Shown in pieces: positions 10,131-62,957 of a stretch of 64,000 nt of DNA (the first letter of the stretch is position 1; the number at the start of each line of letters is the position of its first letter). The position numbers and the translations under genes were made by a program. Source of the stretch: a plasmid; the NCBI RefSeq assembly GCF_053078305.1, contig NZ_CP166875.1. One strand, written 5' to 3'. The notes beneath the pieces are model-generated. The model worked only from the letters and a program-made list of their open reading frames with translations. It was not told the origin of the DNA and searched no databases.

Positions 10131-10633
10131 CGGCAAACTGCCGTCGTTTCTGCCATACATCCTGAATGCCTTATGGCGCATTCTGCCGTTTTCTGGCTTT
10201 CCGGACCGCGAGGATCCCAAAAGCCACTGAATAACGATCCGCAATATACCCCTTTTCCACCGCTTTGAAAAGCCGACACGATTTCTCTGATTTACCAGGC
10301 CTCTCATTAACCACCTAAAAAACGTCGTTTTTTTGAACTATGTCAAAAAAATAGACAATTCCACAAACGATCTTTTATGCTGTGTTTTTCATCATTTTTA
10401 GTAGAAGAGATCGCCTAAAATTTTTAAACGATCTAATCCTCCAGACACCGCACACAAATCAGCATAATATGCTGCTTTATCAAATATAACGATCTATTTA
10501 ACTGCTTATCTTCACTCTTGCCACAGATACATCCTTATGTAATATATTTGCCAGCCATTAATCCTGTTTGCAGGAGTTGTCGGTTTTCGCCCGCCTCGAA
10601 ACCGTCCACAAGGCTTACAAGAGTGCGTAAATC

Positions 10634-11275
10634 ATGTGCCTGTCAGAACTGCAGGCCGGGCTGAACGAGGGTCAGCCGCTGTTTCCGACACATGCTTTAT
10701 GTATTCGCCGTTCACAACAACATCGAAGCCCCTCTGCGGGGATCGATTTTCGCGGAGCGTTCCGGATTTTGAATATCAGTGAATTACATCAACGCAACTG
10801 GTATCTGGCTCAGTACATCCCTGCCGGCAAAAACCGCGAACATCTCTTTTCCTGGCTTTCCGAACAACACGTCCTTCCCTGGACACCCCTGATACTGAAA
10901 AAGGTCCGCCGCACGGATAAAGTCTGTGGTTACCGTCGACATATACACGCCGTGTTTCCCGGTTACTTTTTCCTGAAAGCAGACCCCGAACGCCACAGCT
11001 TCACTCACCTTCGCCGTCACAGTGCCTTTCTGGACTTCGTGAAAATGGCCGGTGAAATCAAAACCGTCAGGGAGGATATCGTTCAGTCTTTGATGAAAGT
11101 GTACCCGGATCCTGCGCTCAATCCGGCAGCCAGGGAGGAGCTGGATGCTGCCTCCACCCTCTGGCTGACAAAAGCGCGTTACCAGTACCTCCTCCGGCTT
11201 GATGCACAGCCTCTGCCGGAGTCGAGGATCGCCCTGCTCCTGCACCTGGTATCTGATGACGGAGCGTTGACATGA
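10634..11275 (+). CDS. NusG/RfaH-like (NGN domain) protein, possible transcription antiterminator
   Basis: Segment NWYLAQY...LPWTPLILKKVRRTDKVCGYRRHIHAVFPGYFFLKADPE...FLDFVKMAG parallels the RfaH/NusG NGN domain (FPNYLFVEFDPE); no clear KOW domain; start uncertain. Confidence 0.45.
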   Translation: MCLSELQAGLNEGQPLFPTHALCIRRSQQHRSPSAGIDFRGAFRILNISELHQRNWYLAQYIPAGKNREHLFSWLSEQHVLPWTPLILKKVRRTDKVCGYRRHIHAVFPGYFFLKADPERHSFTHLRRHSAFLDFVKMAGEIKTVREDIVQSLMKVYPDPALNPAAREELDAASTLWLTKARYQYLLRLDAQPLPESRIALLLHLVSDDGALT

Positions 11276-11415
11276 AAATTGCTGTCTTAATTTGACGACT
11301 TTTCCCGGCCTTTATGGCCGGGATTTTTTTCCCTTCTGTTTCCACAATGCCCGGCACCGGTGACACCTGAGGGTGTACGGAGAGCGGCTGTCGGGCATTT
11401 TTTCAGGACGCCTTT

Positions 11416-12081
11416 ATGACCATTCTATCCCAGGAAAACCCTGTCATTCTGTTACTGGAGAATATGCTCGAAGCACTCTCCACCGCCCCGGACAACATAA
11501 ACAACGAACGGCGTCGCCGGCGTTACCTGCTGAACTGGCTTGACACTGCCCGTCAGATGCGCGAGTTCAGAGGAATGGCTGAAGAGTTCACTACCCTGCG
11601 AAAACTGCTGGCCACCAATTCAGACATACCGGTAGCAAACACCCTGAAATCACTGCTGGAAAGTGGCAATAACGCAGCATTATACGACCTGTACCGCTTC
11701 CGCTCGGCTCTTTCCGCGTGCAGAAGTCTGGGATGGCAGATTGGCACGTGCGCATGGAACGACCAGCTGCTGAGTGAGACACTTTCCCGTGCGCAAACAG
11801 GTAAACGTCATATCCTGCAGCTGAACAGTACCAGAGACACCTTTTCCACCACGGGCAGAATGCTCAGACCGGTGGCATTTTCATTAATTCATCCGGCATC
11901 CCTCGAATCTTCAGAAGTGGAAGAGATATTCCGGGATGAAGGTTTTATACTCGCGCACGGACGCGAATGCAGCCTGAACGGCAGCGGCAGAAACATGCTG
12001 TCACGCATTCTTCATGTGGGGCATTCAGGTTTACCGAAAGCCGAATGGGGCATAGATCACAGCAATCACCTGTTACACTGA
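11416..12081 (+). CDS. hypothetical protein
   Basis: 221-aa ORF, no recognisable motif. Confidence 0.3.
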   Translation: MTILSQENPVILLLENMLEALSTAPDNINNERRRRRYLLNWLDTARQMREFRGMAEEFTTLRKLLATNSDIPVANTLKSLLESGNNAALYDLYRFRSALSACRSLGWQIGTCAWNDQLLSETLSRAQTGKRHILQLNSTRDTFSTTGRMLRPVAFSLIHPASLESSEVEEIFRDEGFILAHGRECSLNGSGRNMLSRILHVGHSGLPKAEWGIDHSNHLLH

Positions 12082-12347: not shown

Positions 12348-12968
12348 ATGACACTGACGTTACTTACCGCGTATAACGCACCCTATCTGGCAGCCCTGAC
12401 TTTTGTTCTGCTTACTGGTATCGCTGAACTTATCGCCCTGCTCTGCGGACACTCCCTCTCTTCAGCTATGGATACACCTGATTTACCGGAGGGGCTGACA
12501 GGAGAGGCGCTGGACTGGCTGAACATCGGACGGATCCCCCTGCTGATCGTCCTCTGTATACTGGCAGGTTTTTTTGGTATATCCGGCATTCTCCTGCAGG
12601 GTCTTATTATTCATCTGCTGCAGGCTCCTGCCCCGAACATTCTCCTTGCACCACTTTGCCTGCTGCTGACATGTCCTCTCGTACACCGCACCGGCAGACT
12701 GATTGCCCCCTGGTTACCCCGTGATGAAACAACGGCGCTCACCGAGGAGGCATTCATCGGGTGTATGGCCACCATCACCGGTTATCACGCAGTGGCGGGT
12801 TCCCCCTGTGAAGGTCGCTTCACAGACCGCTTTGGGCAGGTTCATTACCTGTTGCTGGAGCCGGAGGCCGGGAAAGAATTCAGACGAGGAGACAAAGTGA
12901 TTATTGTCTGCCGTCTTTCCGGTTCCCGCTGGCTGGGCGAACTGAATCCCTGGCCGGATGTTCTTTAA
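12348..12968 (+). CDS. yqiJ: NfeD-like membrane protein (YqiJ-like)
   Basis: 206 aa; N-terminal TM helices plus C-terminal soluble domain (...GQVHYLLLEPEAGKEFRRGDKVIIVCRLSGSRWLGEL); upstream of an SPFH/flotillin gene as in the yqiJ-yqiK pair. Confidence 0.55.
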   Translation: MTLTLLTAYNAPYLAALTFVLLTGIAELIALLCGHSLSSAMDTPDLPEGLTGEALDWLNIGRIPLLIVLCILAGFFGISGILLQGLIIHLLQAPAPNILLAPLCLLLTCPLVHRTGRLIAPWLPRDETTALTEEAFIGCMATITGYHAVAGSPCEGRFTDRFGQVHYLLLEPEAGKEFRRGDKVIIVCRLSGSRWLGELNPWPDVL

Positions 12969-12971
12969 TCC

Positions 12972-12979
12972 CGACATAT
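12972..12979. repeat. 8-bp target-site duplication (left) of IS66 element
   Basis: CGACATAT immediately left of the IS terminus; identical copy at 15513-15520. Confidence 0.7.
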
Positions 12980-13009
12980 GTAAGCGTCAACGGAGCACCG
13001 TATTGACGC

Positions 13010-14623
13010 TTATTTATTGGTGAGTACTACGTTCCATGGCAGGAGTTCATCAACTCGGTTGGAAGGCCATTCTGGCAGTACGCTCAGGATATGGCGCAGA
13101 TACGCTTCCGGATCGATACCGTTCAGACGGCAGGTGCCGATCAGCCCGTACAACAGTGCTCCACGCTCGCCGCCGTGATCGCTGCCAAAGAACATAAAGT
13201 TTTTCTTTCCGAGACAGACTGCACGAAGCGCTCTTTCCGCAGCATTATTATCCGCCTCCGCCAGACCGTCATCACTGTAATAACAGAGGGCATCCCACTG
13301 ATTCAGTACATAGCTGAACGCTTCGCCCAGTCTGGATTTTTTCGACAGCGTACCATTCTTCTCCACCATCCATTCATGCAGTGACGTCAGTAACACTTTG
13401 CTTCGCTGCTGCCTGACGGCAAGACGCTCTGACTCCGGTAATCCCCGTATTTCATCCTCGATGGCGTACAGTTCACTGATTCGCTTCAGGGCTTCTTCTG
13501 CCGTCGCACTTTTGCTGCTGATGTATACATCGTGGATTTTTCGCCGGGCATGGGCCCAGCACGCAACTTCTGTCAGTGCACCACCTTCACGTTCTGCACT
13601 GAACAGCCGATCGTAACCGCTGAACGCATCCGCCTGCAGGATACCCCGGAAGGGACGAAGGTGTTGTACCGGATGTTTTCCCTGCCTGTCTGGTGAGTAG
13701 GCGAACCAGACCGCCGGTGGCTCTGATGAGCCCGCATTCCGGTCATCCCGGACATACGTCCAGATGCGTCCTGTTTTTGCCTTTTTTCTGCCCGCTGCCA
13801 GCACTTTTACTGGTGTGTCGTCAGTGTGAACCTTGCGGGTGTTCATCACGTAACGGTACAGGGTATCATTCAGCAGAGTCATTAACTGACAACATGCGTC
13901 AACCCAGTTGGAGAGTAATGCCCGGCTCAGTTCGATGCCCTGGCGGGCAAAGATTTCACTCTGACGATACAGTGGCAGGTGTTCGCAGTATTTTCCCGTT
14001 AACACGCGGGCAAGTAATCCGGAGCCCGCGATGCCGCGCTCTATCGGGCGGGACGGCGCTGGCGCTTCAACTATACAGTCACATTTTGTACAGGCTTTTT
14101 TTACCCGAACAGTGCGGATCACTTTCAGGGCGCTACTCACCAGTTCCAGCTGCTCAGCACTGACTTCCCCCAGATAATCCAGCTCACTGCCACACTCCGG
14201 GCAACAACTTTCTTCAGGCTCCAGACGGTGTATTTCACGGGGAAGATGTGCCGGTAACGGACGACGATGACGTGACTGTCGCAACTGGCGGGGAACCTGC
14301 GGGTCATCCTCACGCCCACTGTAACGATCGCTTTCCTGTTCGCGTTGTTTCAGTTGGGCCTCAGCCTGTTCAACCTCACGCTGCAGTTTTTCAGAACGGG
14401 TACCGAACAACATCCGGCGCAGTTTTTCTATCTGGGCCCTCAGATGTTCTATTTCCCGCTCCTCCTCTTCGATCTTTTCCTCGGCACGTGCCAGTGCAGA
14501 GCGCAGGAAGGCCTCCGTCTCTTCAACCAGACTCAGTTGCTGATCTTTCTGACGGAGGGCTTCAGCCTGCTCAGAGAGCAGCCTTTCCAGCTCAGTGATA
14601 CGAATGAGGTATTTCCGACTCAT
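13010..14623 (-). CDS. tnpC: IS66-family transposase (TnpC)
   Basis: 537 aa with N-terminal coiled-coil / leucine zipper, Cys-rich zinc-finger (CCPECGSELDY...CTKCDC) and a long catalytic region typical of IS66 transposases. Confidence 0.9.
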   Translation of the reverse strand: MSRKYLIRITELERLLSEQAEALRQKDQQLSLVEETEAFLRSALARAEEKIEEEEREIEHLRAQIEKLRRMLFGTRSEKLQREVEQAEAQLKQREQESDRYSGREDDPQVPRQLRQSRHRRPLPAHLPREIHRLEPEESCCPECGSELDYLGEVSAEQLELVSSALKVIRTVRVKKACTKCDCIVEAPAPSRPIERGIAGSGLLARVLTGKYCEHLPLYRQSEIFARQGIELSRALLSNWVDACCQLMTLLNDTLYRYVMNTRKVHTDDTPVKVLAAGRKKAKTGRIWTYVRDDRNAGSSEPPAVWFAYSPDRQGKHPVQHLRPFRGILQADAFSGYDRLFSAEREGGALTEVACWAHARRKIHDVYISSKSATAEEALKRISELYAIEDEIRGLPESERLAVRQQRSKVLLTSLHEWMVEKNGTLSKKSRLGEAFSYVLNQWDALCYYSDDGLAEADNNAAERALRAVCLGKKNFMFFGSDHGGERGALLYGLIGTCRLNGIDPEAYLRHILSVLPEWPSNRVDELLPWNVVLTNK

Positions 14624-14653
14624 GACCGTTTTTATAATCCGGCCATGACATTT

Positions 14654-15004
14654 TTACAACATTGTCAGTGCATTAAGGCGGGATGTTTTGGGCTGACGCC
14701 AGTCCAGTTTATCGAGGAGCATTGCCAGCTGCGAGCGGGTAATGGATACCTTACCGTCACGCACCGCAGGCCAGATAAACTGGCCTTCCTCCAGACGTTT
14801 GGTGAACAGGCACAGACCATCAGCATCAGCCCACAGAATTTTAATCGTGTCACCCCGTCGGCCGCGAAAGATAAACAGGTGACCGGAGAAGGGGTTCTCA
14901 TCCAGCACATGTTGTACCTGTTCTCCCAGACCGTTGAAGGATTTACGCATATCAGTAACGCCGGCAACCAGCCAGATTCGAGTGCCTGATGGGAGCGAGA
15001 TCAT
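14654..15004 (-). CDS. tnpB: IS66 Orf2 (TnpB) accessory protein
   Basis: 116 aa, MISLPSGTRIWLVAGVTDMRKSFNGLGEQV..., the conserved IS66 Orf2. Confidence 0.85.
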   Translation of the reverse strand: MISLPSGTRIWLVAGVTDMRKSFNGLGEQVQHVLDENPFSGHLFIFRGRRGDTIKILWADADGLCLFTKRLEEGQFIWPAVRDGKVSITRSQLAMLLDKLDWRQPKTSRLNALTML

Positions 15005-15426
15005 CGTCCCCTCCCGGTCAGTTCACGGATCAACACCGTGAGCAGCTCTGGTGAAGGATTTTCCAGCGTCATGTTACCGTGGCGGAACTCAACTTTACAG
15101 GAACTGGCACTGACTGTGCTTTGTGAAGGAGTGGATAAAAGCGGAGTAAGAGCCGCCACAGGCTCTTTCTGCTCATCAGGCGTTATCTCAACAGGTAATA
15201 ATTCAACGCCAGCGCCAGAAGAGGTTGTTACCGGAAGACGCCGCGATATACGCCCTTCGTTCTGCCAGAGCCTGAGCCATTTGAACAGGAGGTTATCATT
15301 GATATCGTGTTCCCGGGCAATACGGGCAACAGAGGCTCCTGGTTGTGAAGCCAGTTTAACCATTTGAAGTTTAAACTCATTTGAAAATGATCTGCGGGGT
15401 TCTGAGGATAATATTTTCTGTTCCAT
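15001..15426 (-). CDS. tnpA: IS66 Orf1 (TnpA) HTH protein
   Basis: 141 aa with HTH (FSNEFKLQMVKLASQPGASVARIAREHDINDNLLFKWLR); stop overlaps the Orf2 start. Confidence 0.8.
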   Translation of the reverse strand: MEQKILSSEPRRSFSNEFKLQMVKLASQPGASVARIAREHDINDNLLFKWLRLWQNEGRISRRLPVTTSSGAGVELLPVEITPDEQKEPVAALTPLLSTPSQSTVSASSCKVEFRHGNMTLENPSPELLTVLIRELTGRGR

Positions 15427-15512
15427 AACAGGTGTCCACTAGTTGAAAAGGTGGGCACCTACGTTACCAATACTGGCTTAATGGCTACATACGGCGGTCA
15501 GTTTACGCTTAC

Positions 15513-15520
15513 CGACATAT
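15513..15520. repeat. 8-bp target-site duplication (right) of IS66 element
   Basis: CGACATAT, identical to 12972-12979. Confidence 0.7.
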
Positions 15521-15535
15521 ACAGAGGTTCTCACT

Positions 15536-17230
15536 ATGTTTAATCTTCCGGGATGGTTGTTTACCGTTATTTCGCTGGTCCTCACCCTGTTCGTTATCGG
15601 GCTGATATTTGCCCGCCTGTACCGTCGGGCATCGGCAGAGCAGGCCTTTGTCCGCACAGGTCTGGGAGGCCAAAAAGTGGTAATGAGTGGCGGTGCAATT
15701 GTTATGCCCATTTTTCACGAAACAATTCCCGTCAACATGAACACCCTGAAGCTGGAAGTCAGTCGTGCAGCGGCTGAAAGTCTCATTACCCGCGACCGCA
15801 TGCGTGTTGATGTTGCCGTTGCCTTTTTTCTTCGGGTAAAACCATCAGCCGAAGGAATATCCACTGCAGCCCAGACGCTGGGACAACGCACGCTCACACC
15901 TGAAGATCTGCGTAGTCTGGTCGAGGATAAATTTGTTGATGCCCTGCGGGCCACGGCGGCCAGAATGAGCATGCAGGATTTACAGGATGCCCGCGAGAAC
16001 TTTGTTCAGGGTGTGCAGAACACCGTTGCGGAAGACTTATCCAAAAACGGTCTGGAGCTTGAAAGTGTGTCGCTGACAAGTTTCAACCAGACTGCACGGG
16101 AACATTTTAATCCTGACAATGCCTTTGATGCTGAAGGCCTGACCCTTCTGACCCAGGAAACAGAACGTCGTCGCCGCGAACGTAACGAAGTTGAGCAGGA
16201 TGTTGAAGTGGCCATCAGGGAAAAAAACCGGGATGCACTCTCCCGACGTCTGGAGATTGAACAGCAGGAAGCCTTCATGACTCTGGAGCAACAACAACGG
16301 GTAAAAACCCGTACGGCAGAGCAGAGTGCCAGTATTGCTGCTATTGAAGCTGAACGACGTCGTGAAGCAGAATCCGCGAGAATTCTGGCTGAACGTAAGA
16401 TAGAGGAAGCCGAAATCGAACGACAGCAGATAGTGCGTACCCGCCAGGTCGAAGCCGAACGGGAAGTGGCCATACGGGAAATTGAGCAACAGCAGGCAAC
16501 CGAAATCGCCAGCCAGGCCAGAGCCATTGCCGTGGCTGCAAAATCGGAAGAGCAGTCACAGGCAGAAGCCCGGGCAAGTAAAGCACTGGCTGAAGCCGTA
16601 CAGGCCCAGCAGGATGTGGAAACCACCCGCCAGACTGCGGAGGCCGACCGTACCAAACAGGTTGCCCTGATTGCTGCTGCTCAGGAAGCTGAAACGAAAG
16701 CGGTTGAACTGACGGTTCGCGCACAGGCTGAAAAAGAAGCAGCCGAACTCCAGGCAGCAGCAATTATTGAACTGGCGGAGGCCACCCGTCAGAAAGGTCT
16801 GGCAGAAGCAGAAGCACAGCGCGCACTGAACGATGCCATTAACGTGCTTTCGGATGAGCAGACCAGCCTCCGCTTCCGTCTTGCCCTGCTGGATGCATTA
16901 CCTGCCGTCATAGAGAAGTCCACAGAACCAATGAAATCCATTGACGGCATTAAAATCATTCAGGTGGATGGCCTGAATGGCGGTGTTACCCGTGGTAAAA
17001 CAGCAACAACCGACATAAGTGGCGGAAATCTCGCTGAACAGGCGGTAACCGCCGCTCTGGCTTACCGTACACAGGCTCCGCTCATCGACTCCCTGCTGAA
17101 GGAGGTGGGGTTATCCGGTGAAGGACTTACAGCCCTGACACGTCCACTGGTCATGCCAGCCCCGGAAAAGGTCCCGGATGTCAGCGAACCGGTAACCGCT
17201 CCGGATAACTCAGAACCACAACAGGTTTAA
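15536..17230 (+). CDS. yqiK: flotillin-like SPFH/band-7 protein (YqiK-like)
   Basis: 564 aa; N-terminal TM anchor, SPFH domain, then long Ala/Glu/Gln-rich coiled-coil (AEAERRREAESARILAERKIEEAEIERQQIV...); AGAGG Shine-Dalgarno before ATG 15536. Confidence 0.75.
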   Translation: MFNLPGWLFTVISLVLTLFVIGLIFARLYRRASAEQAFVRTGLGGQKVVMSGGAIVMPIFHETIPVNMNTLKLEVSRAAAESLITRDRMRVDVAVAFFLRVKPSAEGISTAAQTLGQRTLTPEDLRSLVEDKFVDALRATAARMSMQDLQDARENFVQGVQNTVAEDLSKNGLELESVSLTSFNQTAREHFNPDNAFDAEGLTLLTQETERRRRERNEVEQDVEVAIREKNRDALSRRLEIEQQEAFMTLEQQQRVKTRTAEQSASIAAIEAERRREAESARILAERKIEEAEIERQQIVRTRQVEAEREVAIREIEQQQATEIASQARAIAVAAKSEEQSQAEARASKALAEAVQAQQDVETTRQTAEADRTKQVALIAAAQEAETKAVELTVRAQAEKEAAELQAAAIIELAEATRQKGLAEAEAQRALNDAINVLSDEQTSLRFRLALLDALPAVIEKSTEPMKSIDGIKIIQVDGLNGGVTRGKTATTDISGGNLAEQAVTAALAYRTQAPLIDSLLKEVGLSGEGLTALTRPLVMPAPEKVPDVSEPVTAPDNSEPQQV

Positions 17231-17235
17231 TCCCC

Positions 17236-17553
17236 GTGCCGGAATTTTTCCGGCATCTTTTTCACAAAGAATGCCCTCACGGGATATTCTGGTTTAAAAG
17301 AGGATTGAAAATGTCCGCAGAAAAATTCAGAGTTGTCATATACACCAATACATGTGAAAAGAAAGTCAGTTATATTCCTGCAACAGAAGATATAAACATC
17401 GCTATAATGCCATTTCAGACGGCAGACAATGGCTTAATTATTGTGTGTCAGAACTCCCGTATAATACGACGCAAAGAGCGTATACCCGGAAGCAGCTGTG
17501 AATGGAAAGATGTGACATTAGCACTAAAATCCAGAAACCGCGTTCAGTTATAG
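17236..17553 (+). CDS. hypothetical protein
   Basis: 105-aa ORF between yqiK and the pil operon; start may be the internal Met (MSAEKF...). Confidence 0.25.
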   Translation: MPEFFRHLFHKECPHGIFWFKRGLKMSAEKFRVVIYTNTCEKKVSYIPATEDINIAIMPFQTADNGLIIVCQNSRIIRRKERIPGSSCEWKDVTLALKSRNRVQL

Positions 17554-18161: not shown

Positions 18162-19232
18162 ATGCAAAAAAAATCACTTACACTCCTTCTGCCGTCATTA
18201 CTCAGCGGCTGTACGGCATTTAATGCCACGCCTGTTCCTGACACCACACCTCCGGCTCTGGTGTTCGTCGACGGACAAATTCGCGAAAGCGCTGCCATTA
18301 TCGCCCATACGCAAAAACGTCTGCTTCCGCCACCGGTGACCCGCCCTGTGACGCCGCCCCGCCCGACAACAACAGCGACGCCCACAACCGCAGTCAGCAG
18401 CCAGAGTACCGCACTGCCTCCCCGCCCGCTCCTTCAGGCCACACAGCTGCCCGCACTGGTTATGACCGGTAAACCCGGTCAGTCATCCGTCGTTTATTTA
18501 CGTGAGGCACGTCAGCGCTCCGTCAGTGACTGGATACGCCAGTTGCTGCCACCCGGCTGGCAGTTCCGGCAACAGAACGCTGCCATACCGGCACTGAACA
18601 AACGCCTCCCCGTCTGGTCCGTTAATGACCAGTGGCACCGGGCACTGAATACTCTGCTGACCGGGCAGCAACTGTACGGACATATGGACTGGAACAGGAA
18701 AATACTGACTGTCACGACCACTGCAGCACCGCCTGTTGACCTCACGGCACCGCAGGGTTCACAGAAAACAGCGGACACACCACGTAATCCGTTCAGGAGC
18801 ACAACCGGAACAGCGGCAGACCAGGCACAGGTACCACCTGCCGTCAGCGCTTCCCGGGTTCAGAGCACAACAGGGACATCCGGTACATCTGCGCCCCGCA
18901 CAACCACGCCAGCCCCAGTGGTCACGAAACCGGTAGCGCCACCACCACAGAAGGTCACACCGCCACGGCAGTGGAAAATGGAAAAAGGGACCACGCTGAA
19001 GGACGGACTGGCCCGCTGGACGTCGTCCGAAAAATGCCCCCACGGCACCTGGACGCTGCGCTGGGAAACGCCCGTTAACTACAGTATCGATGCCCCTCTG
19101 GTTTTCACCGGCAGTTTCCGCCAGGCGCTGGAACAGCTCTTCGCACTCTACACCCCGGTGGAAAAACCGCTGTATGCCCGGACCAGCACTGCACAATGTC
19201 TGCTGCGGGTGACAGATCGTCCACAGGAATAA
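18162..19232 (+). CDS. pilL: thin-pilus lipoprotein PilL
   Basis: 356 aa; signal peptide plus lipobox LLSGC; Pro/Thr-rich linkers; first gene of a pilL-pilV order matching the R64 thin-pilus operon as recalled. Confidence 0.7.
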   Translation: MQKKSLTLLLPSLLSGCTAFNATPVPDTTPPALVFVDGQIRESAAIIAHTQKRLLPPPVTRPVTPPRPTTTATPTTAVSSQSTALPPRPLLQATQLPALVMTGKPGQSSVVYLREARQRSVSDWIRQLLPPGWQFRQQNAAIPALNKRLPVWSVNDQWHRALNTLLTGQQLYGHMDWNRKILTVTTTAAPPVDLTAPQGSQKTADTPRNPFRSTTGTAADQAQVPPAVSASRVQSTTGTSGTSAPRTTTPAPVVTKPVAPPPQKVTPPRQWKMEKGTTLKDGLARWTSSEKCPHGTWTLRWETPVNYSIDAPLVFTGSFRQALEQLFALYTPVEKPLYARTSTAQCLLRVTDRPQE

Positions 19233-32546: not shown

Positions 32547-32635
32547 TAACGCAGAGAAAAAACCAATAAATTTTTAATGGCACAGTCGTGTCATACCGTT
32601 GCTGTACCCAAAACACCTCAAACCAGGAAACTGAA

Positions 32636-33838
32636 ATGATGATGAATATGCACATTACCCGAACTCTCATCGCATCTGCTGTTTTATTTTCCTTTAATTC
32701 AACAGCCGCAACTTCATATTTTGAAGCCCGCAATGATGCAATGGGGGGAACCGGGGTAGCCTCCTCTCACTACGGTGTGGCACCTCTGGCAAACCCGGCC
32801 CTGCTGACAAAAGCCGGTCCGGAAGATGACTTCAGTCTTCTGCTTCCGTCCGTTGGTGGGCAATTGTCCGATCCGGGTAATATCAGTGACAACGCAGACA
32901 AAATCAGTGATGACTGGAAAGCCTTTGATCGTGCCATCGACAGTCAGAGCAACGTGTCGCAGACTGCTGCACGTCTGAAGACGCGACTTCAGGACTTCCG
33001 TCACACACATGCTGACGCACAGGTGGGAACATCTGCTGTGGCGACTCTTCCCGGTGACACCCTCGCTGCCGCTCTGATGCTGAAAAGCTACGGTACGATC
33101 AGTGTCGACGGTAAAGTCAGTGATGCCGACCTGAACTATCTGGAAAGCATTGCAAACAGTAACGGTCAGGATGTGGATAAAGACAGACTGACCTCTCAGG
33201 CTTTTGCCCGTGCCGCACTGGTCACCGATGTGGGTATTGCTCTGGCTACTGAACTGGAAACGGCCGGACAAAAGTGGTCTCTGGGCTTCACACCAAAATT
33301 CCAGCGTGTTGACCTGTTTAACTACAACGTGCTGGTTAAAAATTACGACAGCAGCGCTTTCAAAGGCGACCGTTACCACAACACCAGAAACGGCATTAAC
33401 GCTGATATCGGGGCCAGCATGGACCTGGATGACAACTGGACACTGGGTCTGGTCGCACAGAACCTGCTCCCCCGCAGTATTGAGACAAAGGAAGTGAACG
33501 GTGTCACAGAAACTTTCAGGATCCGCCCGCAGGTGACTGCCGGTGTCTCCTGGCACAACGACATGTTCACTACAGCACTGGATGTTGACCTGACCCCGGC
33601 CAGTGGCTTCACATCAGACAGTAAACGTCAGTTTGCTGCCATTGGTGCTGAATTTAATGCCTGGAAATGGGCACAGTTACGTGCAGGCTACCGCCAGAAT
33701 CTGGCCAGCAATGATGGCAGTGCGTTCACCGCCGGGCTGGGTATCTCACCATTTGATGTCGTCCATATTGATGTGGCGGGTATAGCAGGCACAGACAACA
33801 ACTACGGTGCCGTTGCACAACTGCAGTTCACATTCTGA
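32636..33838 (+). CDS. outer-membrane beta-barrel-like transfer protein
   Basis: Start at ATG 32636 (AGGAAA Shine-Dalgarno); signal peptide; C-terminus ...AVAQLQFTF ends in Phe with alternating hydrophobic pattern typical of outer-membrane barrels. Confidence 0.45.
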   Translation: MMMNMHITRTLIASAVLFSFNSTAATSYFEARNDAMGGTGVASSHYGVAPLANPALLTKAGPEDDFSLLLPSVGGQLSDPGNISDNADKISDDWKAFDRAIDSQSNVSQTAARLKTRLQDFRHTHADAQVGTSAVATLPGDTLAAALMLKSYGTISVDGKVSDADLNYLESIANSNGQDVDKDRLTSQAFARAALVTDVGIALATELETAGQKWSLGFTPKFQRVDLFNYNVLVKNYDSSAFKGDRYHNTRNGINADIGASMDLDDNWTLGLVAQNLLPRSIETKEVNGVTETFRIRPQVTAGVSWHNDMFTTALDVDLTPASGFTSDSKRQFAAIGAEFNAWKWAQLRAGYRQNLASNDGSAFTAGLGISPFDVVHIDVAGIAGTDNNYGAVAQLQFTF

Positions 33839-34649: not shown

Positions 34650-35482
34650 AAACACACCTGTGTCTCCTGCTGTCTGCTCTCCTGCTTACAGGCTGTGCCG
34701 GACAGCATCACCGTTCTTCTGCCGTCATGACAGAAAACGCACCGCCCCCGGATATCCGTGCATGGCTGACGCCCTCCGGAAACCAGGATGATGGTATTTC
34801 AGATACCCGTCGTCAGATGCTCACGGATGCCGGCAGAACGCTGGGATTCCGTGGTGGAAAAGCACAGCGCTCATGGGAACTGATTCAGGCACTGAATGCC
34901 CGGGAAAGTACCCTGAATGCCCTGTATGATTTCCGGCCTCTCATCAGCAAGGAAGGCTGGCTGCCTCCTGTTATCGATGAAGCGCAGGATGTTGCACACA
35001 TCAGACCGGACCAGATAAGAACAGCCTCCCGTGTCTGGACCATCCTCCGCCCGGAACGCTTTGTCAGTAATCCACCTGGATGGCGTGACTGGCTGCTGAA
35101 AGGACTCTCAACCACCGCCACACCAGGCACTGAAGGCCGGGTTGTGCCGGAAGACCGGGCACAACGCAGACTATGGGAAAACGCCTTACGTCAGGGATGG
35201 CAGGAAGGGCGCCTCAACGCAGATCTCACACTGGAAGCTAATCAGAAGCGCCTGACCCGTGATTACCGGGGCATGATGCTTTACGCCCTTCTGTGGCGTC
35301 AGGGCATGATCACACGTCCAGATGTCACAGAGCAGATGCAGACGGTTACCGGCAACGGGCAAAAACTCATCACTGGCGATCGCGTCCGCCGCCTGAAAAC
35401 ACATGCTGAATTTACGCTGCAGAAATCGCGCTGGCGCCCTCTTGTCAGCACCGAAGGAGAGAAAAATGATATCACCAGATGA
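34646..35482 (+). CDS. traI: transfer lipoprotein (DotC/TraI-like by size and position)
   Basis: 278 aa, lipobox LLTGC; start overlaps previous stop. Confidence 0.45.
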   Translation: MKTHLCLLLSALLLTGCAGQHHRSSAVMTENAPPPDIRAWLTPSGNQDDGISDTRRQMLTDAGRTLGFRGGKAQRSWELIQALNARESTLNALYDFRPLISKEGWLPPVIDEAQDVAHIRPDQIRTASRVWTILRPERFVSNPPGWRDWLLKGLSTTATPGTEGRVVPEDRAQRRLWENALRQGWQEGRLNADLTLEANQKRLTRDYRGMMLYALLWRQGMITRPDVTEQMQTVTGNGQKLITGDRVRRLKTHAEFTLQKSRWRPLVSTEGEKNDITR

Positions 35483-36614
35483 CTTCGGTACCTTCCCCTT
35501 CTCCCGTTTTACGGCAGAAGAGTTTCGCCATTTTTTTGCCTGGTGTGCCCGCCACCGCGTCAGTGATATTGATCTGACCGGCGGTTCACCGGTATCCGTC
35601 AGTCGCTTTGGACGGCGGGTTCGCTCATCCGTAAATCCCCTTCCGTCTTCCATCATGATGGCACTGAGTGATGAGCTGTTTGGGCGGGAGGTTCTTCCCC
35701 GGGTTCTGTCAGGTCATCCCGTGGATCGTACCATTCAGGTCAGCGGAGATGCCTCCGGCCGCTATGGCCTGCAGCGAGGTCAGCGTGTTCGCCTGCGCTG
35801 CCACCTGATACAGGGAACATCGGCAACAGAAGAAAAAGCCATTTCCGTCACCATGCGGGTGATCCCGTCAGATATTCCGGACATCCTCACTATGAATATT
35901 GAACCGGATCTGCTGGATGCCATGCTCAGAAAAACCGGCCTGGGCTTCATCTGCGGAGAAACCGGCTCCGGGAAATCCACACTGGCGGCGGCACTGTATC
36001 GCCACATTCTGAAAAATTTCCCCGATCGCAAAATAGTGACCTATGAAGATCCGGTGGAATACATTCTGGGCGGAGAGAATGACCTTCTGCCTCCCCATCA
36101 GGCCGAAATCGGGCGCGATGTGGAAAGTTTTGCTGCAGGACTTCGCTCTGCCGTTCGCCGTAATCCGGACATCATTGGTATCGGTGAAATCAGGGATTAT
36201 GAAACAGCAGATGCCGCAGTCCAGGCGGGTAATACCGGACACTTTTGTATCGGCACCATGCACACAAAATCACCCGGAGAAACCTTTGCCCGCCTGCTGG
36301 GATTGTTTCCTCCTGAAATCAGGGATTCGATGGCTGCAGCCACGCTTTCCCTCGTACAGTTCATTCTGGTGCAGGTACTGGTCAGAACAAATGACGGCGG
36401 CAGGCAGGCTGTCCGGGAATACATCGTCATAACTGACGAACTGCGCAATACGCTCTCCGGACAATCCCATGCAACATGGGGACATTACATTGACGAAATC
36501 ATTCGTCAGGAAAAACGGCGGATAAGGGATCAGGTTCTGACCATGTATCAGAACGACCGCATTGAGAAATCAGAAGCAGCGCTCTTCATCCCGGCCGGAG
36601 AGTTCCCCCGATGA
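35466..36614 (+). CDS. traJ: T4SS secretion ATPase (VirB11/DotB/TraJ family)
   Basis: Walker A GETGSGKST, Asp box IGEIRDYETA and His box ...GHFCIGTMHT; start at ATG 35466 with GGAGA Shine-Dalgarno, overlapping the preceding gene. Confidence 0.85.
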   Translation: MISPDDFGTFPFSRFTAEEFRHFFAWCARHRVSDIDLTGGSPVSVSRFGRRVRSSVNPLPSSIMMALSDELFGREVLPRVLSGHPVDRTIQVSGDASGRYGLQRGQRVRLRCHLIQGTSATEEKAISVTMRVIPSDIPDILTMNIEPDLLDAMLRKTGLGFICGETGSGKSTLAAALYRHILKNFPDRKIVTYEDPVEYILGGENDLLPPHQAEIGRDVESFAAGLRSAVRRNPDIIGIGEIRDYETADAAVQAGNTGHFCIGTMHTKSPGETFARLLGLFPPEIRDSMAAATLSLVQFILVQVLVRTNDGGRQAVREYIVITDELRNTLSGQSHATWGHYIDEIIRQEKRRIRDQVLTMYQNDRIEKSEAALFIPAGEFPR

Positions 36615-36901
36615 AACGCGAAGGCTTCTGGCGGGATGTAACACCACCGCTCAACATTTATGGTGTCCCCCTGCCGTTTACCATGATTTACCTGCTGTTG
36701 TTTCCGTATCCGTCAAAAACGACATTCTGGGTGTGCAGCGGCATTCTGCTGTTTTTTATGCTCCTGGGATATTCCGGCTGGACAGTCCGCACCCTCTGTA
36801 TACGTCTGTACAGCCTGCTTCAGGGTAAGCAGGCATCGGGACGTCCCTGGTGGTACCGACACCGCACAGAATTACCCCGTGAATGGCACGGACCAGAATA
36901 G
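36611..36901 (+). CDS. small integral-membrane transfer protein (TraK position)
   Basis: 96 aa with two hydrophobic segments; start overlaps the traJ stop. Confidence 0.4.
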   Translation: MKREGFWRDVTPPLNIYGVPLPFTMIYLLLFPYPSKTTFWVCSGILLFFMLLGYSGWTVRTLCIRLYSLLQGKQASGRPWWYRHRTELPREWHGPE

Positions 36902-36964: not shown

Positions 36965-39900
36965 ATGAAGTCCAGATATCGTACCTGGCTTGCTGTCCCG
37001 CCTGAGGAGACAGAAGCCGTAAAAAATGCAGTCCCCCCGTTAAATGGCCGCAAAGCTGTCGCATGGGATCCAGAAAAAAAACTCTGGTATGCCCGGGCGG
37101 GTACCGAACTTTCACTGCTGGAGCGCTGGTTACCCCGGCCGCAGGAACTGTCGATGGATGCCGGCGATCCGGTCACCGAATTTGCTCAGGTCCTGGAAAA
37201 CGCCGGACTGGTTATTCAGGGATTGCCACAGATGGATGGCGCCATACACAGAGTCGCCACCCGGGATGACAAAAAAGGGGCCAAAAGTGGCGCATACAAG
37301 GCCTATCTTGATGGGCGCCCCGCCGGCTGGTACCGCGACTACCGGAGCGCCGATGACAGTCCCACAAACTGGGTATTTTCCGGCGGAGAACAACACGATC
37401 CTCTGGCCAGACTGCATCTGCGGGCATTCGCTCAGCAACAGCGCGATGATAACGCACGTAAACTGCAGCAACAGTACAACAAACAGGCCCGGTATGCCCG
37501 CTCCTATATTAACCAGTTACCACAGGCAACAGAGCATGAATACCTGACCCGAAAAGGGATCCTTGCCGCACCGGGCGTCCGTCTGAATAACAAGAATGAA
37601 CTCGTCATCCCTTTCAGTAACAGCCGGGGAGAAATACGTTCATACCAGCGTATTCCTGTCACCGGCGGGAAGGATGCCCGCATTCTGAAAGACTCAGAGA
37701 AAACCGGTAACTGGTTCACCTTCGGAACCCCGGAAAATGGCCGTCCCCTGTTATTTGCGGAAGGTTACGCAACTGCAGCCTCCCTGCACGAAGCCACCGG
37801 CCTTCCGGTTCTGATGACAGTTGATGCCGGCAATATGATTGACGTGGCAGAAAATGCCCGCCAAATCTGGACTGACAGCCCCTTTGTCTTCTGTGCCGAC
37901 AACGACCATCAACGGAAAATTAACAAAGGTGTTTCAAGTGCCCAAAAAGCTGCCGCAAGCACGCATGGCGAAGTCATTATTCCGGCCTTTACGGAGGCGG
38001 AAAAAGCACAGGGACTGACCGATTTCAATGACCTGGACGCCAGCAGGGGACGAGACGCCTTTCAGCGAGCCATGAACGCACAGTTAGAATATATCGGTAT
38101 CCCCACGCCCAACAATGACACTACTGACCGCCGTGAAGCTATCGTGATCGGCAACCTGATATTCACACCGGTAAAAGATGAGAAGCCACAAGTGTACCCT
38201 GAAAACAGACAGAGCACAGCCCCTGAACCGGCAGTGTCGGAACAGAATCATCCTTATGACATCCCTGCAGAAGAGACAGACAATCAGGCATATGAAGATG
38301 ACTATGCAGCATATGCATCCCTGCAGTCGGTAACTGCAGGGACAGCCTCCCCGAATGAACCGCAGGTGAATGCTGTTTCTGCCATTGACAGCAACGCAAA
38401 GAATACCTCTGCCGCCACCACTGACGACCGAAATGTATTAGCACAAGAACCCAATGCTGACGCCACAGTTACGACCACGGCTCACGACACCGGCACAGCA
38501 GAAACAGATTCACCTTCTGAACCTGCAGAGATTCAGCCAGTGCAGCAGGCCAGTCCTGAACCATCGGCTAAAGATAAACCACAGGAGAACGTAGTGTCTG
38601 CTACTGATAATGACGCAGAGAACACCTCTTCCGCCACCACTGCCCTCCGGAGTTACGACACACCGGAAACATCCGTCTCCGACGCAACCGGGACACAGCA
38701 CACCGCCACAACGCAACCTGAAGAACCACAGCAGGTCTCCATGGGCAGCGCTGACGACTGGAGCGCATTTGCGGAAGACCTCAATGCTGATGCTCCGGGG
38801 AATGCCACTGTTCACAGCACCGACAACGCGGAGACAAAGACACTTTCTGAACCTGCCGGGATGCAGCCTGTTCAACAGGCAACCCCTGAACCAACGGAAG
38901 AAAATAAACCTCAGGAAGAGGGCGTTATGTCTGCCACTGATACAGGTGAAGAGAGTGCCGCTGCCGCTATCGATGACGACCTGGACACAGTTGCGGAAGA
39001 CCTCAATGCTGATGTTACTGTGATGACCACAGCTCACCACACCGATACAGCAGAAACAGCCTCACCTTCTGAACCTGCAGAAATTCAGCCCGTACAGCAG
39101 GCAACCCCTGAACCAACGGCAGAAGATAAACCGAAGGAAGAGCGTCCAGTGTCTGCCACTGAGACCAGCACAGCGAATGAAACAGCCCGCCCTGAAACAG
39201 CATCGCTTTTCAGCCGCCTGCGCCGTTTTCTGACCGGTGGAAAATCACGTACCGCCGAACCTCCCGTTATTCAGGAGAACAAGCTTACGGAGGCCGAAAC
39301 TGCGACAGAGGCCGCAGCACCACCGTCACCACCTGAAACCAGCCCGGAAGACACATCGTCAGCAGAACCGGACACGATTATCTTTGCGCCCCGCCGGCCC
39401 AACAGTCCGCAGCGGCACAACCTGGACGAGATTATTAAAAATCTTACATACGATGAGTTACCCGACAATACTGCGCTCTGCCGCGTCGACGGCGAACCGG
39501 CATTCCTGGATAAACTCAACCGTCTGGAAATGGTGGATGGTGCCAGCACTGATGACAAAAAGGTCCTGGCTGCCCTTGCTGTGGCCACCAACTTCTATGG
39601 CGGCGTTATCGAGCTGACCGGCAGTGATGCCTTTAAACAAAAAGCCATGCAGCTGATTGTCGAATATGACATCAAGGTTCGCATGAAACTCCCGGTCCAG
39701 AGGGCTGCGCTGGAAAAACTCCGCCAGGAGAAAGGGATGGCGCATGATGCCATCGTCACCCACAGACCCACGCCGGAACTCAACCGCCTGTCACCGGAAG
39801 AGACAACAATGGCACAACCGGCCCCCCCTGTGTCACCGAAAGCAGAAACAGAGCAAACTGCAGGCAGTACGGCTGAAACACCGCATCCGGAAGCGCCGGT

Positions 39901-56340: not shown

Positions 56341-56991
56341 ATGAACAAAACGAAAAGCAGATATCCTTCCTGGTGGGCATATTACCACTTGGCCCGCAAC
56401 GCTTATTTCTTATTAGGAATACCGTGTTTACTTTTATACTCAGCCGCTTATACATCAGATTTATTAGATGATAATCTAAGACATTCAACAAGCCTTTTTA
56501 TTTTGGCATATGGATGTTATTTTCTTCTTTTTATTCCCCCACTCTGGCTATATCTGAGAACTAAGGCAAAGAAAAAGAAAATCCTACAGGTTGTTAAGAA
56601 GATAAAAGAAAGCAGTCCCTTTGCGCCGACCAGCGATTACGAGCAACTGTCATTCTCGAAGAGTTGCTATTTCGGGATCGACATTAAAAACGGCACCATG
56701 CTGTATGTGCGCATTTACCCAAACAATGTCATGGATGTGATTGGTCTGGATATTCACAACTTCACCCGAACAGTTGCTGAAGACGGCAAGCTGGAAATCC
56801 ACACCACCTATGTGAGTCTGCCGATGATCCCTCTTGAAATCTCCGGCATCTCAGCAAGGACGCTGGCCAACACCATGCACACCATGGCTGCACGTGGATA
56901 TGAGTACAAGGAACGTTTCCCACAGATGATCCGGTATCGGGTTAAAGAGTGGGAAAAAGTTGCCGGTGTTCCTGTTGCAGAAGTATTTTGA
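56341..56991 (+). CDS. excA: entry-exclusion protein ExcA-like
   Basis: 216 aa with N-terminal TM helices, directly after the traY-like gene as in IncI plasmids; 5' half AT-rich. Confidence 0.5.
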   Translation: MNKTKSRYPSWWAYYHLARNAYFLLGIPCLLLYSAAYTSDLLDDNLRHSTSLFILAYGCYFLLFIPPLWLYLRTKAKKKKILQVVKKIKESSPFAPTSDYEQLSFSKSCYFGIDIKNGTMLYVRIYPNNVMDVIGLDIHNFTRTVAEDGKLEIHTTYVSLPMIPLEISGISARTLANTMHTMAARGYEYKERFPQMIRYRVKEWEKVAGVPVAEVF

Positions 56992-57023: not shown

Positions 57024-57056
57024 AGCCGGTTTTCTCTGAACCGGCTTTTTCTTTTC
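57024..57056 (+). terminator. rho-independent terminator after the transfer operon
   Basis: Perfect 8-bp stem AGCCGGTT / AACCGGCT with 7-nt loop followed by TTTTTCTTTT. Confidence 0.5.
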
Positions 57057-58848: not shown

Positions 58849-59467
58849 TGACGCACAGGACGGAAAAAATAATAGCTGCCGGACAGCAGCAACCAGCAGT
58901 CGTCCGGTAAAAAAGACAAACAAGGCGCATTGAGGTCAGCCTTCGCAACAATCCGGCGGCAGATTCTCTACCGCCGTGTTGCCCGTTAACGTTTAACTTC
59001 GTAGGCTAACGTTGCCACAAGCACCGTATTTCCCTGCTCGATACGAAATCCGCAAAGCGAATCCCTCACCATCCAGACAAAACACAGTATCGTCACACAG
59101 ACGACGATTAACATCATTAAAAACGTTCGTTGTGGCATCGCAGCCCCTCCATTGCCTTTCGGCCGTCATCGGGCTACTATAATGTTGTTGAGGCATTACA
59201 GTGGGCCCTGGGTTGATTGATAAAAAAATCGCCTGGGGCTTTCTGCTACATGCCGTCCACAAAACGCTTTCGGCATACAGCCTCAAGCGCCCGCCGCTAT
59301 TCTAATCGTTTTCCAGTCCGCCACAATCCTTTTCATGCCACCACGTATTTTGTGTCAGGGACAGAAATAAAGCCGGAAAGTGACTACGTGTGCACACATC
59401 TGTTTTCCGGGCTGCAGGCATCGTGTTATTTTCTGAAATGCAAAATAATAAAAAACAAGGACACATC

Positions 59468-62784: not shown

Positions 62785-62957
62785 TTCATAGTCAGTTATA
62801 GGCAGTTATCTTCCGGTCAGGGCTACCAACTTCGATCCGGAATCGCAAAAAAACCGGCCTCACCAGTCGGTTTTTTTGCGTCTGTACCTCCTCCCCGGAC
62901 AGCAGTTCTCTCACTCCCGTTGAATATTTCCTGTTGAATTTTACGAAAATACGGCAA

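Follow-up and report, generated by a model that had tools for sequence, protein, structure and literature searches.

What does a NusG-like protein do when its gene lies between the replicon and the transfer genes of a plasmid, and where does it act? This question is raised by the plasmid contig NZ_CP166875.1 (NCBI RefSeq assembly GCF_053078305.1), of which we analysed one stretch of 64,000 nucleotides, hereafter the window. An open reading frame (ORF) on its plus strand, running from ATG to stop at 10634-11275 and encoding 213 amino acids (aa), had been described in an earlier note, made from the letters alone, as an RfaH-like factor with an NGN domain; read directly from the sequence, the ORF carries the stretches quoted there (...AVFPGYFFLKADPERHSF... 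/ FPGYFFLKADPE). Judged by its sequence, this ORF is near certain to be traB, the gene for a NusG/RfaH-like positive regulator of conjugation genes in an IncB/O/K/Z (I-complex) plasmid. In other words, TraB is an RfaH-type protein, one of the specialised NusG paralogues. As to its mechanism, our analysis favours, with a probability of roughly 0.6, loading of the PrfaH kind in the traB leader, followed by read-through of a terminator into traC, pil, and tra.

Deposited E. coli plasmids match the segment 10300-12100 with 100% identity, and 551 plasmid records match it with 90% identity or more. The matching plasmids are typed as IncI-gamma/K1 (the IncB/O/K/Z branch of the I-complex), and on them the gene is annotated as “NusG family protein” or “conjugal transfer protein TraB” and is followed by traC. 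With the TraB protein as the tblastn query, 2,414 plasmid records were recovered at identities down to ~26%, the weakest matches being other NusG paralogues, and 2,085 of these records are typed as conjugative. A search of 1.84 billion representative proteins returned 15 clusters at E <= 1e-30 and 203 at E <= 1e-3, so TraB forms a narrow clade within the RfaH-like proteins. The earlier note had placed the gene beside the replicon, and this is borne out: an IncFII-type repA and the repZ pseudoknot RNA (PK-repZ, Rfam RF01087; 9944-10094) lie upstream on the minus strand, and traC follows, ahead of the pil and tra genes. In eight lineages traB is followed by traC; pilus genes come next in five or more of these, and five or more have an IncFII-type repA upstream. 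Identity of 60-64% with the 177-aa IncI1 proteins, together with the recurring order repA - traB - traC - pil, establishes orthology to the IncI1 TraB.

The gene and the RfaH-like nature of its product are already known and correctly annotated, and TraB is no new entity, because several reports describe its homologues. TraB of pESI “is similar to NusG”, and deletion of traB lowers the pilV, pilS, and pilT transcripts ~4-fold and makes conjugation undetectable (PMC5013300). In the I-complex plasmid pMS7163B, transposon-directed insertion-site sequencing (TraDIS) found that conjugation requires traBC (PMC10286972), and in the IncI1 plasmid pESBL, transposon sequencing (TnSeq) scored both TraB and TraC as transfer genes, at 0.56 for traB and 0.88 for traC (PMC4288162). 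The R64 TraB is named as a PrfaH homologue needed for transfer in the paper on PrfaH (PMC11880322). The need for homologues of TraB in conjugation and in pil transcription has therefore been shown in the literature, and these genetics (pESI, pMS7163B, R64) agree with the proposal that the protein serves the pil/tra genes downstream. The earlier note gave a distance of about 7 kb, which is that to pilL (18162), but the target genes begin directly after traB, with traC at 11416; two accessory genes and an IS66-family insertion of 2.5 kb lengthen the gap.

The ORF exists as it was first delimited, but its start was probably set 135 nt too far upstream. The traB coding sequence most likely begins at TTG 10769 and runs to 11275 on the plus strand, encoding 168 aa, and the ORF from ATG 10634 is the same frame extended upstream; we adopt this start because relatives begin there, the upstream peptide is unconserved, and the upstream nucleotides are conserved as paired helices. 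Full-length, non-fused relatives are 163-217 aa long (mostly 165-181), the family alignment begins at the TTG 10769 column, most relatives start there with “M[ND]I..”, and a 168-aa version (P0004) is also present in the NCBI database. Across lineages, the peptide encoded by the 45 codons upstream of TTG 10769 is unconserved: the IncI1 stretch is in another frame and contains a stop, that of Y. ruckeri is stopped after 10 codons, and that of Citrobacter has no ATG. Judged by these alignments, the first 45 codons of the 213-aa ORF are a conserved, structured 5' leader.

We rejected the 213-aa reading, in which the true product would carry a 45-residue N-terminal extension, and we consider it quite improbable. 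It is true that the frame is open from 10634, that NCBI annotates the 213-aa form (WP_000335846.1) on several plasmids, and that the upstream frames are also open in a few divergent relatives. However, the extension shows no peptide conservation across lineages, an open run of 45 codons is expected by chance at roughly 11%, what is conserved here is the pairing of the nucleotides, the ATG itself lying inside a helix, and the MNI column is the start in most relatives.

The NGN domain occupies residues 10-108 of the 168-aa protein (10796-11092, plus strand) and contains the RNA-polymerase-binding motif FPGYFF, a patch that is invariant across the family alignment. The Pfam NusG model PF02357 matches the 213-aa ORF with E = 8.6e-5 (23.4 bits against a gathering cut-off of 22.2) and the 168-aa form with 24.2 bits; all 30 family members match it, the best with E = 2.8e-9. 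By these profile matches, TraB belongs to the NusG/Spt5 superfamily well beyond chance, and the earlier note, which had named the lack of any NGN match in profile searches as the result that would speak against it, was right about the domain. The NCBIfam RfaH models match with E = 1e-9, and the RfaH hidden Markov model (HMM) aligns over positions 2-147 of 162; the score of 38.5 bits lies below the RfaH equivalog cut-offs of 144.5 and 124 (TIGR01955 / NF006534). Among proteins of the PDB, phmmer ranks PrfaH of the IncX3 plasmids first (9ik0, E = 1.8e-7), and E. coli RfaH follows with E = 6e-4 to 2e-3.

The predicted structure agrees with this assignment. An AlphaFold model built from the 30-sequence alignment (mean pLDDT 87, pTM 0.82) has an NGN fold at residues 10-111, followed by three C-terminal helices at 119-128, 135-146, and 150-162. 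When the PDB was searched with this model by Foldseek, the autoinhibited form of E. coli RfaH ranked first (5ond, 8pfg, 8pib, 2oug; E down to 2.9e-9), with ~156 aligned columns covering both domains and a target-normalised TM-score of 0.73-0.79 (5ond/8pfg/2oug). PrfaH (9ik0) ranked behind the RfaH structures, and NusG NGN domains were matched too.

The three predicted helices form a C-terminal domain at residues 119-162 (11123-11254, plus strand), whose homology to the C-terminal domain of RfaH is indicated by HMMER, the RfaH HMM, AlphaFold, and Foldseek. By HMMER, residues 156-208 of the 213-aa ORF align with RfaH residues 99-148, and the invariant R198, L202, and L205 (ORF numbering) correspond to R138, L142, and L145, which lie at the interface between the two domains of RfaH. 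In the model, the C-terminal helical hairpin is predicted to pack on the NGN domain and to mask its polymerase-binding face, as in autoinhibited RfaH. The earlier note had seen no obvious KOW domain. The motif indeed went undetected by Pfam in all 30 family members at E <= 10, which is a weak test because RfaH itself reaches only a sub-threshold E = 0.016 and PrfaH has no match; TraB nevertheless has a C-terminal domain, homologous to the one in RfaH. The glycines of the KOW GxFxG motif, G121 and G125 of RfaH, are replaced in TraB by A181 and Y185 (ORF numbering), the position of RfaH G135 is a nearly invariant proline in the TraB family, and the protein stops ~9 residues short of the RfaH C-terminus, which leaves it without the last strand of the beta-barrel form. 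The loss of the glycines and of the last strand argues, at the level of sequence, against refolding of this domain into an S10-binding KOW beta-barrel.

What precedes the gene is about as conserved as the gene itself. A ~150-nt leader, conserved in blocks, stands ahead of traB in 15 lineages, which include the window, IncI1, Yersinia, Citrobacter, Pectobacterium, Klebsiella, Kluyvera, Pluralibacter, Erwinia, Enterobacter, and Cedecea. Nucleotide identity to the window is 51-71% in the leader and 59-67% in the coding sequence, and falls to 30-61% further upstream and to 30-42% in the traB-traC spacer. Transcription of this leader would start from a putative sigma-70 promoter at 10518-10545 (TTGCCA-16 nt-TAATAT, plus strand, from a consensus scan), giving a 5' untranslated region (UTR) of ~215 nt. 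A promoter-like site is found at most related loci, its -10 element ending 186-226 nt ahead of the traB start. The hexamer AAGAGT at 10620-10625 was also considered as a -10 element and was rejected, because it is the 5' arm of a covarying helix.

This helix belongs to the stem-loop HP1 (10621-10706, plus strand), whose outer helices pair 10621-10638 with 10689-10706 in RNAalifold predictions and pair counts. HP1 includes the conserved blocks CTGTCAGAACTGCAG (10640-10654) and CTGTTTC and spans ATG 10634. Across the 15 lineages, 87% of the alignment cells in the outer helices are paired, compared with 30-45% in slid controls, and 30 cells show double changes against 11.5 +/- 3.0 in shuffles, a value that none of the 500 shuffles reached. 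Because G-U pairs outnumber A-C combinations by 35 to 9, the structure appears to be that of a sense-strand RNA, and the antisense reading is disfavoured. The inner helix (GAAC.GCAG with CTGTTTC) is compatible with the fold and too conserved for much covariation. When the window leader was folded alone, its stability was no better than that of shuffled sequences (z = 0.45), so the structure is supported by covariation only. A second hairpin, HP2 (10722-10747, plus strand; AUCGA-AG-CCCC-UCUGC-GGGG-AUCGAU), appears in the fold of the window leader and in the alignment folds, and its support is moderate because compensatory changes are few. The most conserved part of the leader is the block GGGGATCGATTTTCGCGGAGCG at 10738-10759 (plus strand), in which GGAT is invariant across the 15 lineages and which includes a candidate Shine-Dalgarno sequence, GGAG, at 10754-10757. 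The block occurs once in the window and is the best candidate for an ops-like TraB loading site, although this function is a guess from the alignments.

How is this leader distributed? Rfam has no family for the traB or traC leaders (its hits in the window are only PK-repZ, sok, and AgrB), and an nhmmer profile of the leader finds a single copy in the window. The earlier note had suggested a search for ops-like elements ahead of the pil and tra operons. Neither pattern searches nor the nhmmer profile found further leader motifs or a further leader anywhere in the window, the region upstream of pilL (18162) included, so that for this plasmid the notion that each operon has its own loading site is unsupported. 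The canonical ops sequence GGCGGTAGnnTG, with up to 2 mismatches allowed, is absent from plus-strand leaders. The only exact copy of ops, GGCGGTAGCCTG, lies on the minus strand at 33684-33695, antisense to a plus-strand tra ORF (32588-33838), and is probably fortuitous, because ~0.12 matches are expected by chance. On the IncI1 plasmids, a second copy of the leader is located ~1 kb upstream, ahead of traA (1286-1440 in locus L003; 35703-35857 in pESBL-EA11, locus L023); it retains all blocks and shows a compensatory change from CAG/CUG to CGG/CCG. The leader therefore behaves as a modular cis element. In pESBL-EA11, 40 nt separate the end of this second copy from the published Hft region that follows it (35394-35663), a segment of 270 bp in which transposon insertions raise the transfer of pESBL 20-fold. 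The window plasmid has neither traA nor the second leader copy.

It should be mentioned that the sequence AACGATCT occurs three times, exactly, just upstream of the putative traB promoter (10366-10373, 10427-10434, and 10488-10495, plus strand). The copies are spaced by 61 bp, each contains a GATC Dam site, and they are the only ones in the 64 kb; the triplet is also present in pO113, and partial sets are found at IncI1 and Citrobacter loci. These copies could be regulator-binding or methylation-sensitive sites.

The size of HP1 suggests another way of using the leader. TraB might be recruited by, or act through, the structured leader RNA, as LoaP does, or the hairpins might be an independent riboregulator of traB translation or stability. 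HP1 comprises ~86 nt, far more than a transcription bubble, its covariation and G-U bias are those of a sense RNA, the second IncI1 copy has kept the structure through a compensatory change, and the residues with which RfaH reads DNA are unconserved in TraB. We nevertheless consider this explanation unlikely, since the nearest characterised relatives, RfaH and PrfaH, read single-stranded non-template DNA, the LoaP model (NF033641) gives TraB only 22 bits against a cut-off of 125, and the most invariant bases, GGATCG, lie in or just past the 3' arm of HP2, matching the position of the DNA site of PrfaH.

Downstream of the gene, 28 nt past the traB stop, a scan identified the intrinsic terminator T1 at 11303-11330 (plus strand; TCCCGGCC-TTTAT-GGCCGGGA followed by T7), a strong one, with a stem of 8 bp, seven of them G-C pairs, ahead of the T-run. 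A hairpin and T-run with a differing stem sequence follow the traB stop by 10-62 nt in 11 of 13 lineages, and in the remaining two the sole terminator match overlaps the end of traB. Beyond T1, a long-range helix in the traC leader (11346-11400, plus strand; AAUGCCCGGCA...CUGUCGGGCAUU) is predicted by minimum free energy (MFE) folds. In all 12 of the traB-traC spacers folded in this way, one per lineage, a long helix closes a domain, the sequence of the helix varying from one to the next, and the window has a shortened form of what is a domain of 110-130 nt in other lineages. In Citrobacter the closing helix is UAUCCGGAAUGGCGUCUG...CAGACGCCAUUCCGGAUA, and in the spacers of loci L003-L021 and the window the domain contains a conserved small hairpin, GAACAcCCUCUGUUC. 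The next gene is traC (11416-12081, plus strand, 221 aa, named from the annotation of identical plasmids), the conserved partner of traB and a reported second positive regulator. A traC homologue follows traB in every lineage for which downstream sequence is available, and TraC has no relative in Pfam or the PDB and no recognisable fold or family.

These observations allow a cascade, in which TraB only passes the terminator between traB and traC, as a local factor that relieves attenuation and is not processive over 48 kb, and TraC activates the pil/tra promoters. The terminator stands exactly between the two genes in most lineages, traC keeps its place wherever the sequence extends that far, both genes are needed for transfer, the TnSeq score of traC exceeds that of traB, the window holds a single leader copy, and the traC leader has a conserved structure of its own. 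We judge the cascade somewhat unlikely, because TraC has no DNA-binding or other recognisable domain, RfaH-type factors usually remain on the polymerase across the whole operon, and between 10.8 and 59 kb nearly every gene points the same way, which fits long co-directional transcription.

The mechanism that we favour is that of PrfaH, because TraB shares its layout (leader element, regulator gene, terminator, transfer genes) and because the leader blocks resemble each other. The site bound by PrfaH is an ops-like non-template hairpin in the 5' UTR of its own gene, at -42 to -25 relative to the start codon; PrfaH leaves promoter activity unchanged and raises expression past a stem-loop before virB1 (PMC11880322). 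The mapped site, TCGGGGTCATCCGAG..GAGAGAGCG, resembles the block at 10738-10759 and stands at a similar distance from the start codon. Likewise, TTCGGGGTCATCCGAGTCGAGAGAGCGCC in the leader of IncX3 is similar to the TraB block CGGGGATCG(R)TT..GCG(G/A)GAGCG, also written CGGGGATCG...GCGGAGCG, and the motif common to the PrfaH and TraB leaders is CGGGG(A)TC...GAG(A)GCG. TraB combines a conserved terminator after its gene with a conserved, PrfaH-site-like block at -33 to -10, which is a candidate for binding. Our analysis shows the identity and fold of TraB, the synteny, and the conservation of leader and terminator; sequence-specific loading and antitermination we infer, and likewise which genes TraB would reach directly and which through TraC. 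The steps would be as follows. A promoter near 10518-10545 would produce a leader of ~215 nt with the two conserved hairpins. The 168-aa TraB would be kept closed by its helical C-terminal hairpin until it met RNA polymerase at a specific leader signal, for which the invariant block at 10738-10759 is the best candidate. The NGN domain would then bind the beta' clamp helices through the FPGYFF patch and remain on the polymerase, which could thereby pass the terminator at 11303-11330 and later termination signals into traC, pil, and probably tra.

Several points weigh against this proposal. Antitermination by TraB is extrapolated from PrfaH and RfaH, and no paper showing the TraB mechanism was found in the literature that we searched. 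The loading site is a guess, and the likeness of the leader block to the PrfaH site is short and imperfect. RfaH counters chiefly Rho-dependent termination and pausing, and intrinsic terminators only weakly. The large leader hairpins are of a size suited to RNA, beyond that of the bubble, and RNA-based control fits them at least as well as recognition of non-template DNA does. The ops-reading residues of RfaH, which we take to be K10, H20, R23, Q24, and R73, are changed in TraB at four of the five positions in the HMMER alignment (K10 to P, H20 to W, R23 to E, and R73 to S), and at three of these positions TraB has conserved residues of its own (W74, H129, and S130); the absence of ops from plus-strand leaders is what such changes would lead one to expect. 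The window has a single leader copy, and if the transfer genes form several transcription units, uniform loading of TraB would be impossible. Finally, a 2.5-kb insertion sequence (IS) in opposite orientation lies within the supposed path of the transcript from traB to pil.

TraB might instead be a conventional activator of initiation, or a general competitor of NusG that needs no specific loading site and lifts the silencing of AT-rich plasmid DNA by Rho/H-NS. The older literature calls TraB and TraC “positive regulators” and gives no mechanism, and neither ops nor a repeated recruitment motif was found in the window. However, no NGN protein is known to act at initiation, the closed RfaH-like state predicted by the model would imply a specific opening signal, PrfaH leaves promoter activity unchanged, and the leader and terminator are conserved around traB. 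These points make either version very improbable.

Starting from the PrfaH-like mechanism, we can speculate one step further, tentatively and with the odds against it. The C-terminal domain of TraB may be incapable of forming a KOW barrel, making it a pure lock and no transformer, and the protein may be loaded through the ~150-nt leader cassette, which may be a previously undescribed element without an Rfam family, conserved across plasmids of the Enterobacterales and present twice in IncI1. The module of leader, traB, terminator, structured traC leader, and traC may then be a distinct antitermination switch for the spread of the I-complex plasmids, and could explain Hft.

The remaining features of the window lie mostly along the presumed path of transcription. 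After traC come the genes for a YqiJ-like protein (12348-12968) and a flotillin (15536-17230), then the pil genes (pilL at 18162) and an extended series of plus-strand tra ORFs. The genes for the YqiJ-like membrane protein (NfeD-type, OB-fold) and for flotillin/SPFH are found between traC and pilI in this plasmid group, and a Citrobacter plasmid has an SPFH and NfeD pair at the same place, so that this accessory pair within the transfer regulon is conserved. The IS66-family insertion (12980-15511, minus strand; 2,532 bp), recognised by its Pfam IS66 domains and by its junctions relative to pO113, sits in the 26-bp spacer between these two genes. It contains the minus-strand ORFs 13010-14623, 14654-15004, and 15001-15426, is flanked by an 8-bp target duplication, CGACATAT (12972-12979 and 15512-15519), and may exert a polar effect on the expression of pil here. 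Terminator-like hairpins with T-runs are present on the plus strand at 17236-17256 (after the flotillin gene), 36735-36752 (before a 1,338-aa ORF at 36965), and 57024-57046 (after an ORF ending at 56991), and a processive factor would need to pass them. Two Rfam matches, the sok antitoxin RNA (59136-59292, minus strand, 124.7 bits) and the AgrB antisense RNA (62792-62879, plus strand, 47.7 bits), mark toxin-antitoxin modules in the leading/maintenance region of the plasmid.

Why does this locus matter? The I-complex plasmids (IncI1, IncB/O/K/Z) are major carriers of extended-spectrum beta-lactamase (ESBL) and other resistance genes, and traB/traC is the master switch for their transfer. To this known switch, the present analysis adds a corrected start codon, a structured leader with covariation, a putative loading site, a terminator that separates traB from traC in most lineages, and the second IncI1 leader near Hft. 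If TraB is a PrfaH-like antiterminator, the same logic would govern the transfer of two large unrelated groups, IncX and the I-complex, and TraB would be a plausible target against plasmid spread.

Among known systems, TraB of the IncI-complex plasmids (R64, pESBL-EA11, pESI, and pMS7163B) is the same gene at the same site, between the replicon and traC-pil; identity reaches 98-100% with the IncB/O/K/Z entries. Compared with IncI1, the present subgroup has no traA and no second leader, uses a TTG start, is 9 residues shorter at its end, and has a traB-traC spacer of 140 nt against 200-250 nt. E. coli RfaH shares with TraB the closed two-domain fold, the FPxYxF patch, and the interface helix R..LL..L; it differs in using ops and in having the KOW glycines and the last strand that TraB has lost. 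In LoaP of the Bacillota and UpxY of Bacteroides, as here, the regulator gene adjoins its target operon, and these factors act on leader or operon terminators. LoaP uses a leader RNA hairpin, and both LoaP and UpxY retain a normal KOW domain; their sequence relation to TraB is very weak, and they belong to other taxa and serve other target genes. PrfaH/ActX of the IncX plasmids (PDB 9IK0) is the closest relative with a characterised mechanism: it is plasmid-encoded and RfaH-like, with an NGN domain and a two-helix C-terminal domain; its gene heads the transfer genes, its loading signal lies in its own 5' UTR, a stem-loop terminator precedes the next genes, and its deletion abolishes transfer. 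Although PrfaH is the best PDB sequence match, the two proteins are separate clades and not close relatives by sequence, with 28% identity over 99 NGN residues (pairwise E = 2e-11) and C-terminal domains that BLAST leaves unaligned. Unlike PrfaH, TraB has an extra predicted linker helix, a much longer structured leader, and TraC as a partner, and the systems it serves are a type IVb pilus and I-type secretion, whereas PrfaH serves VirB.

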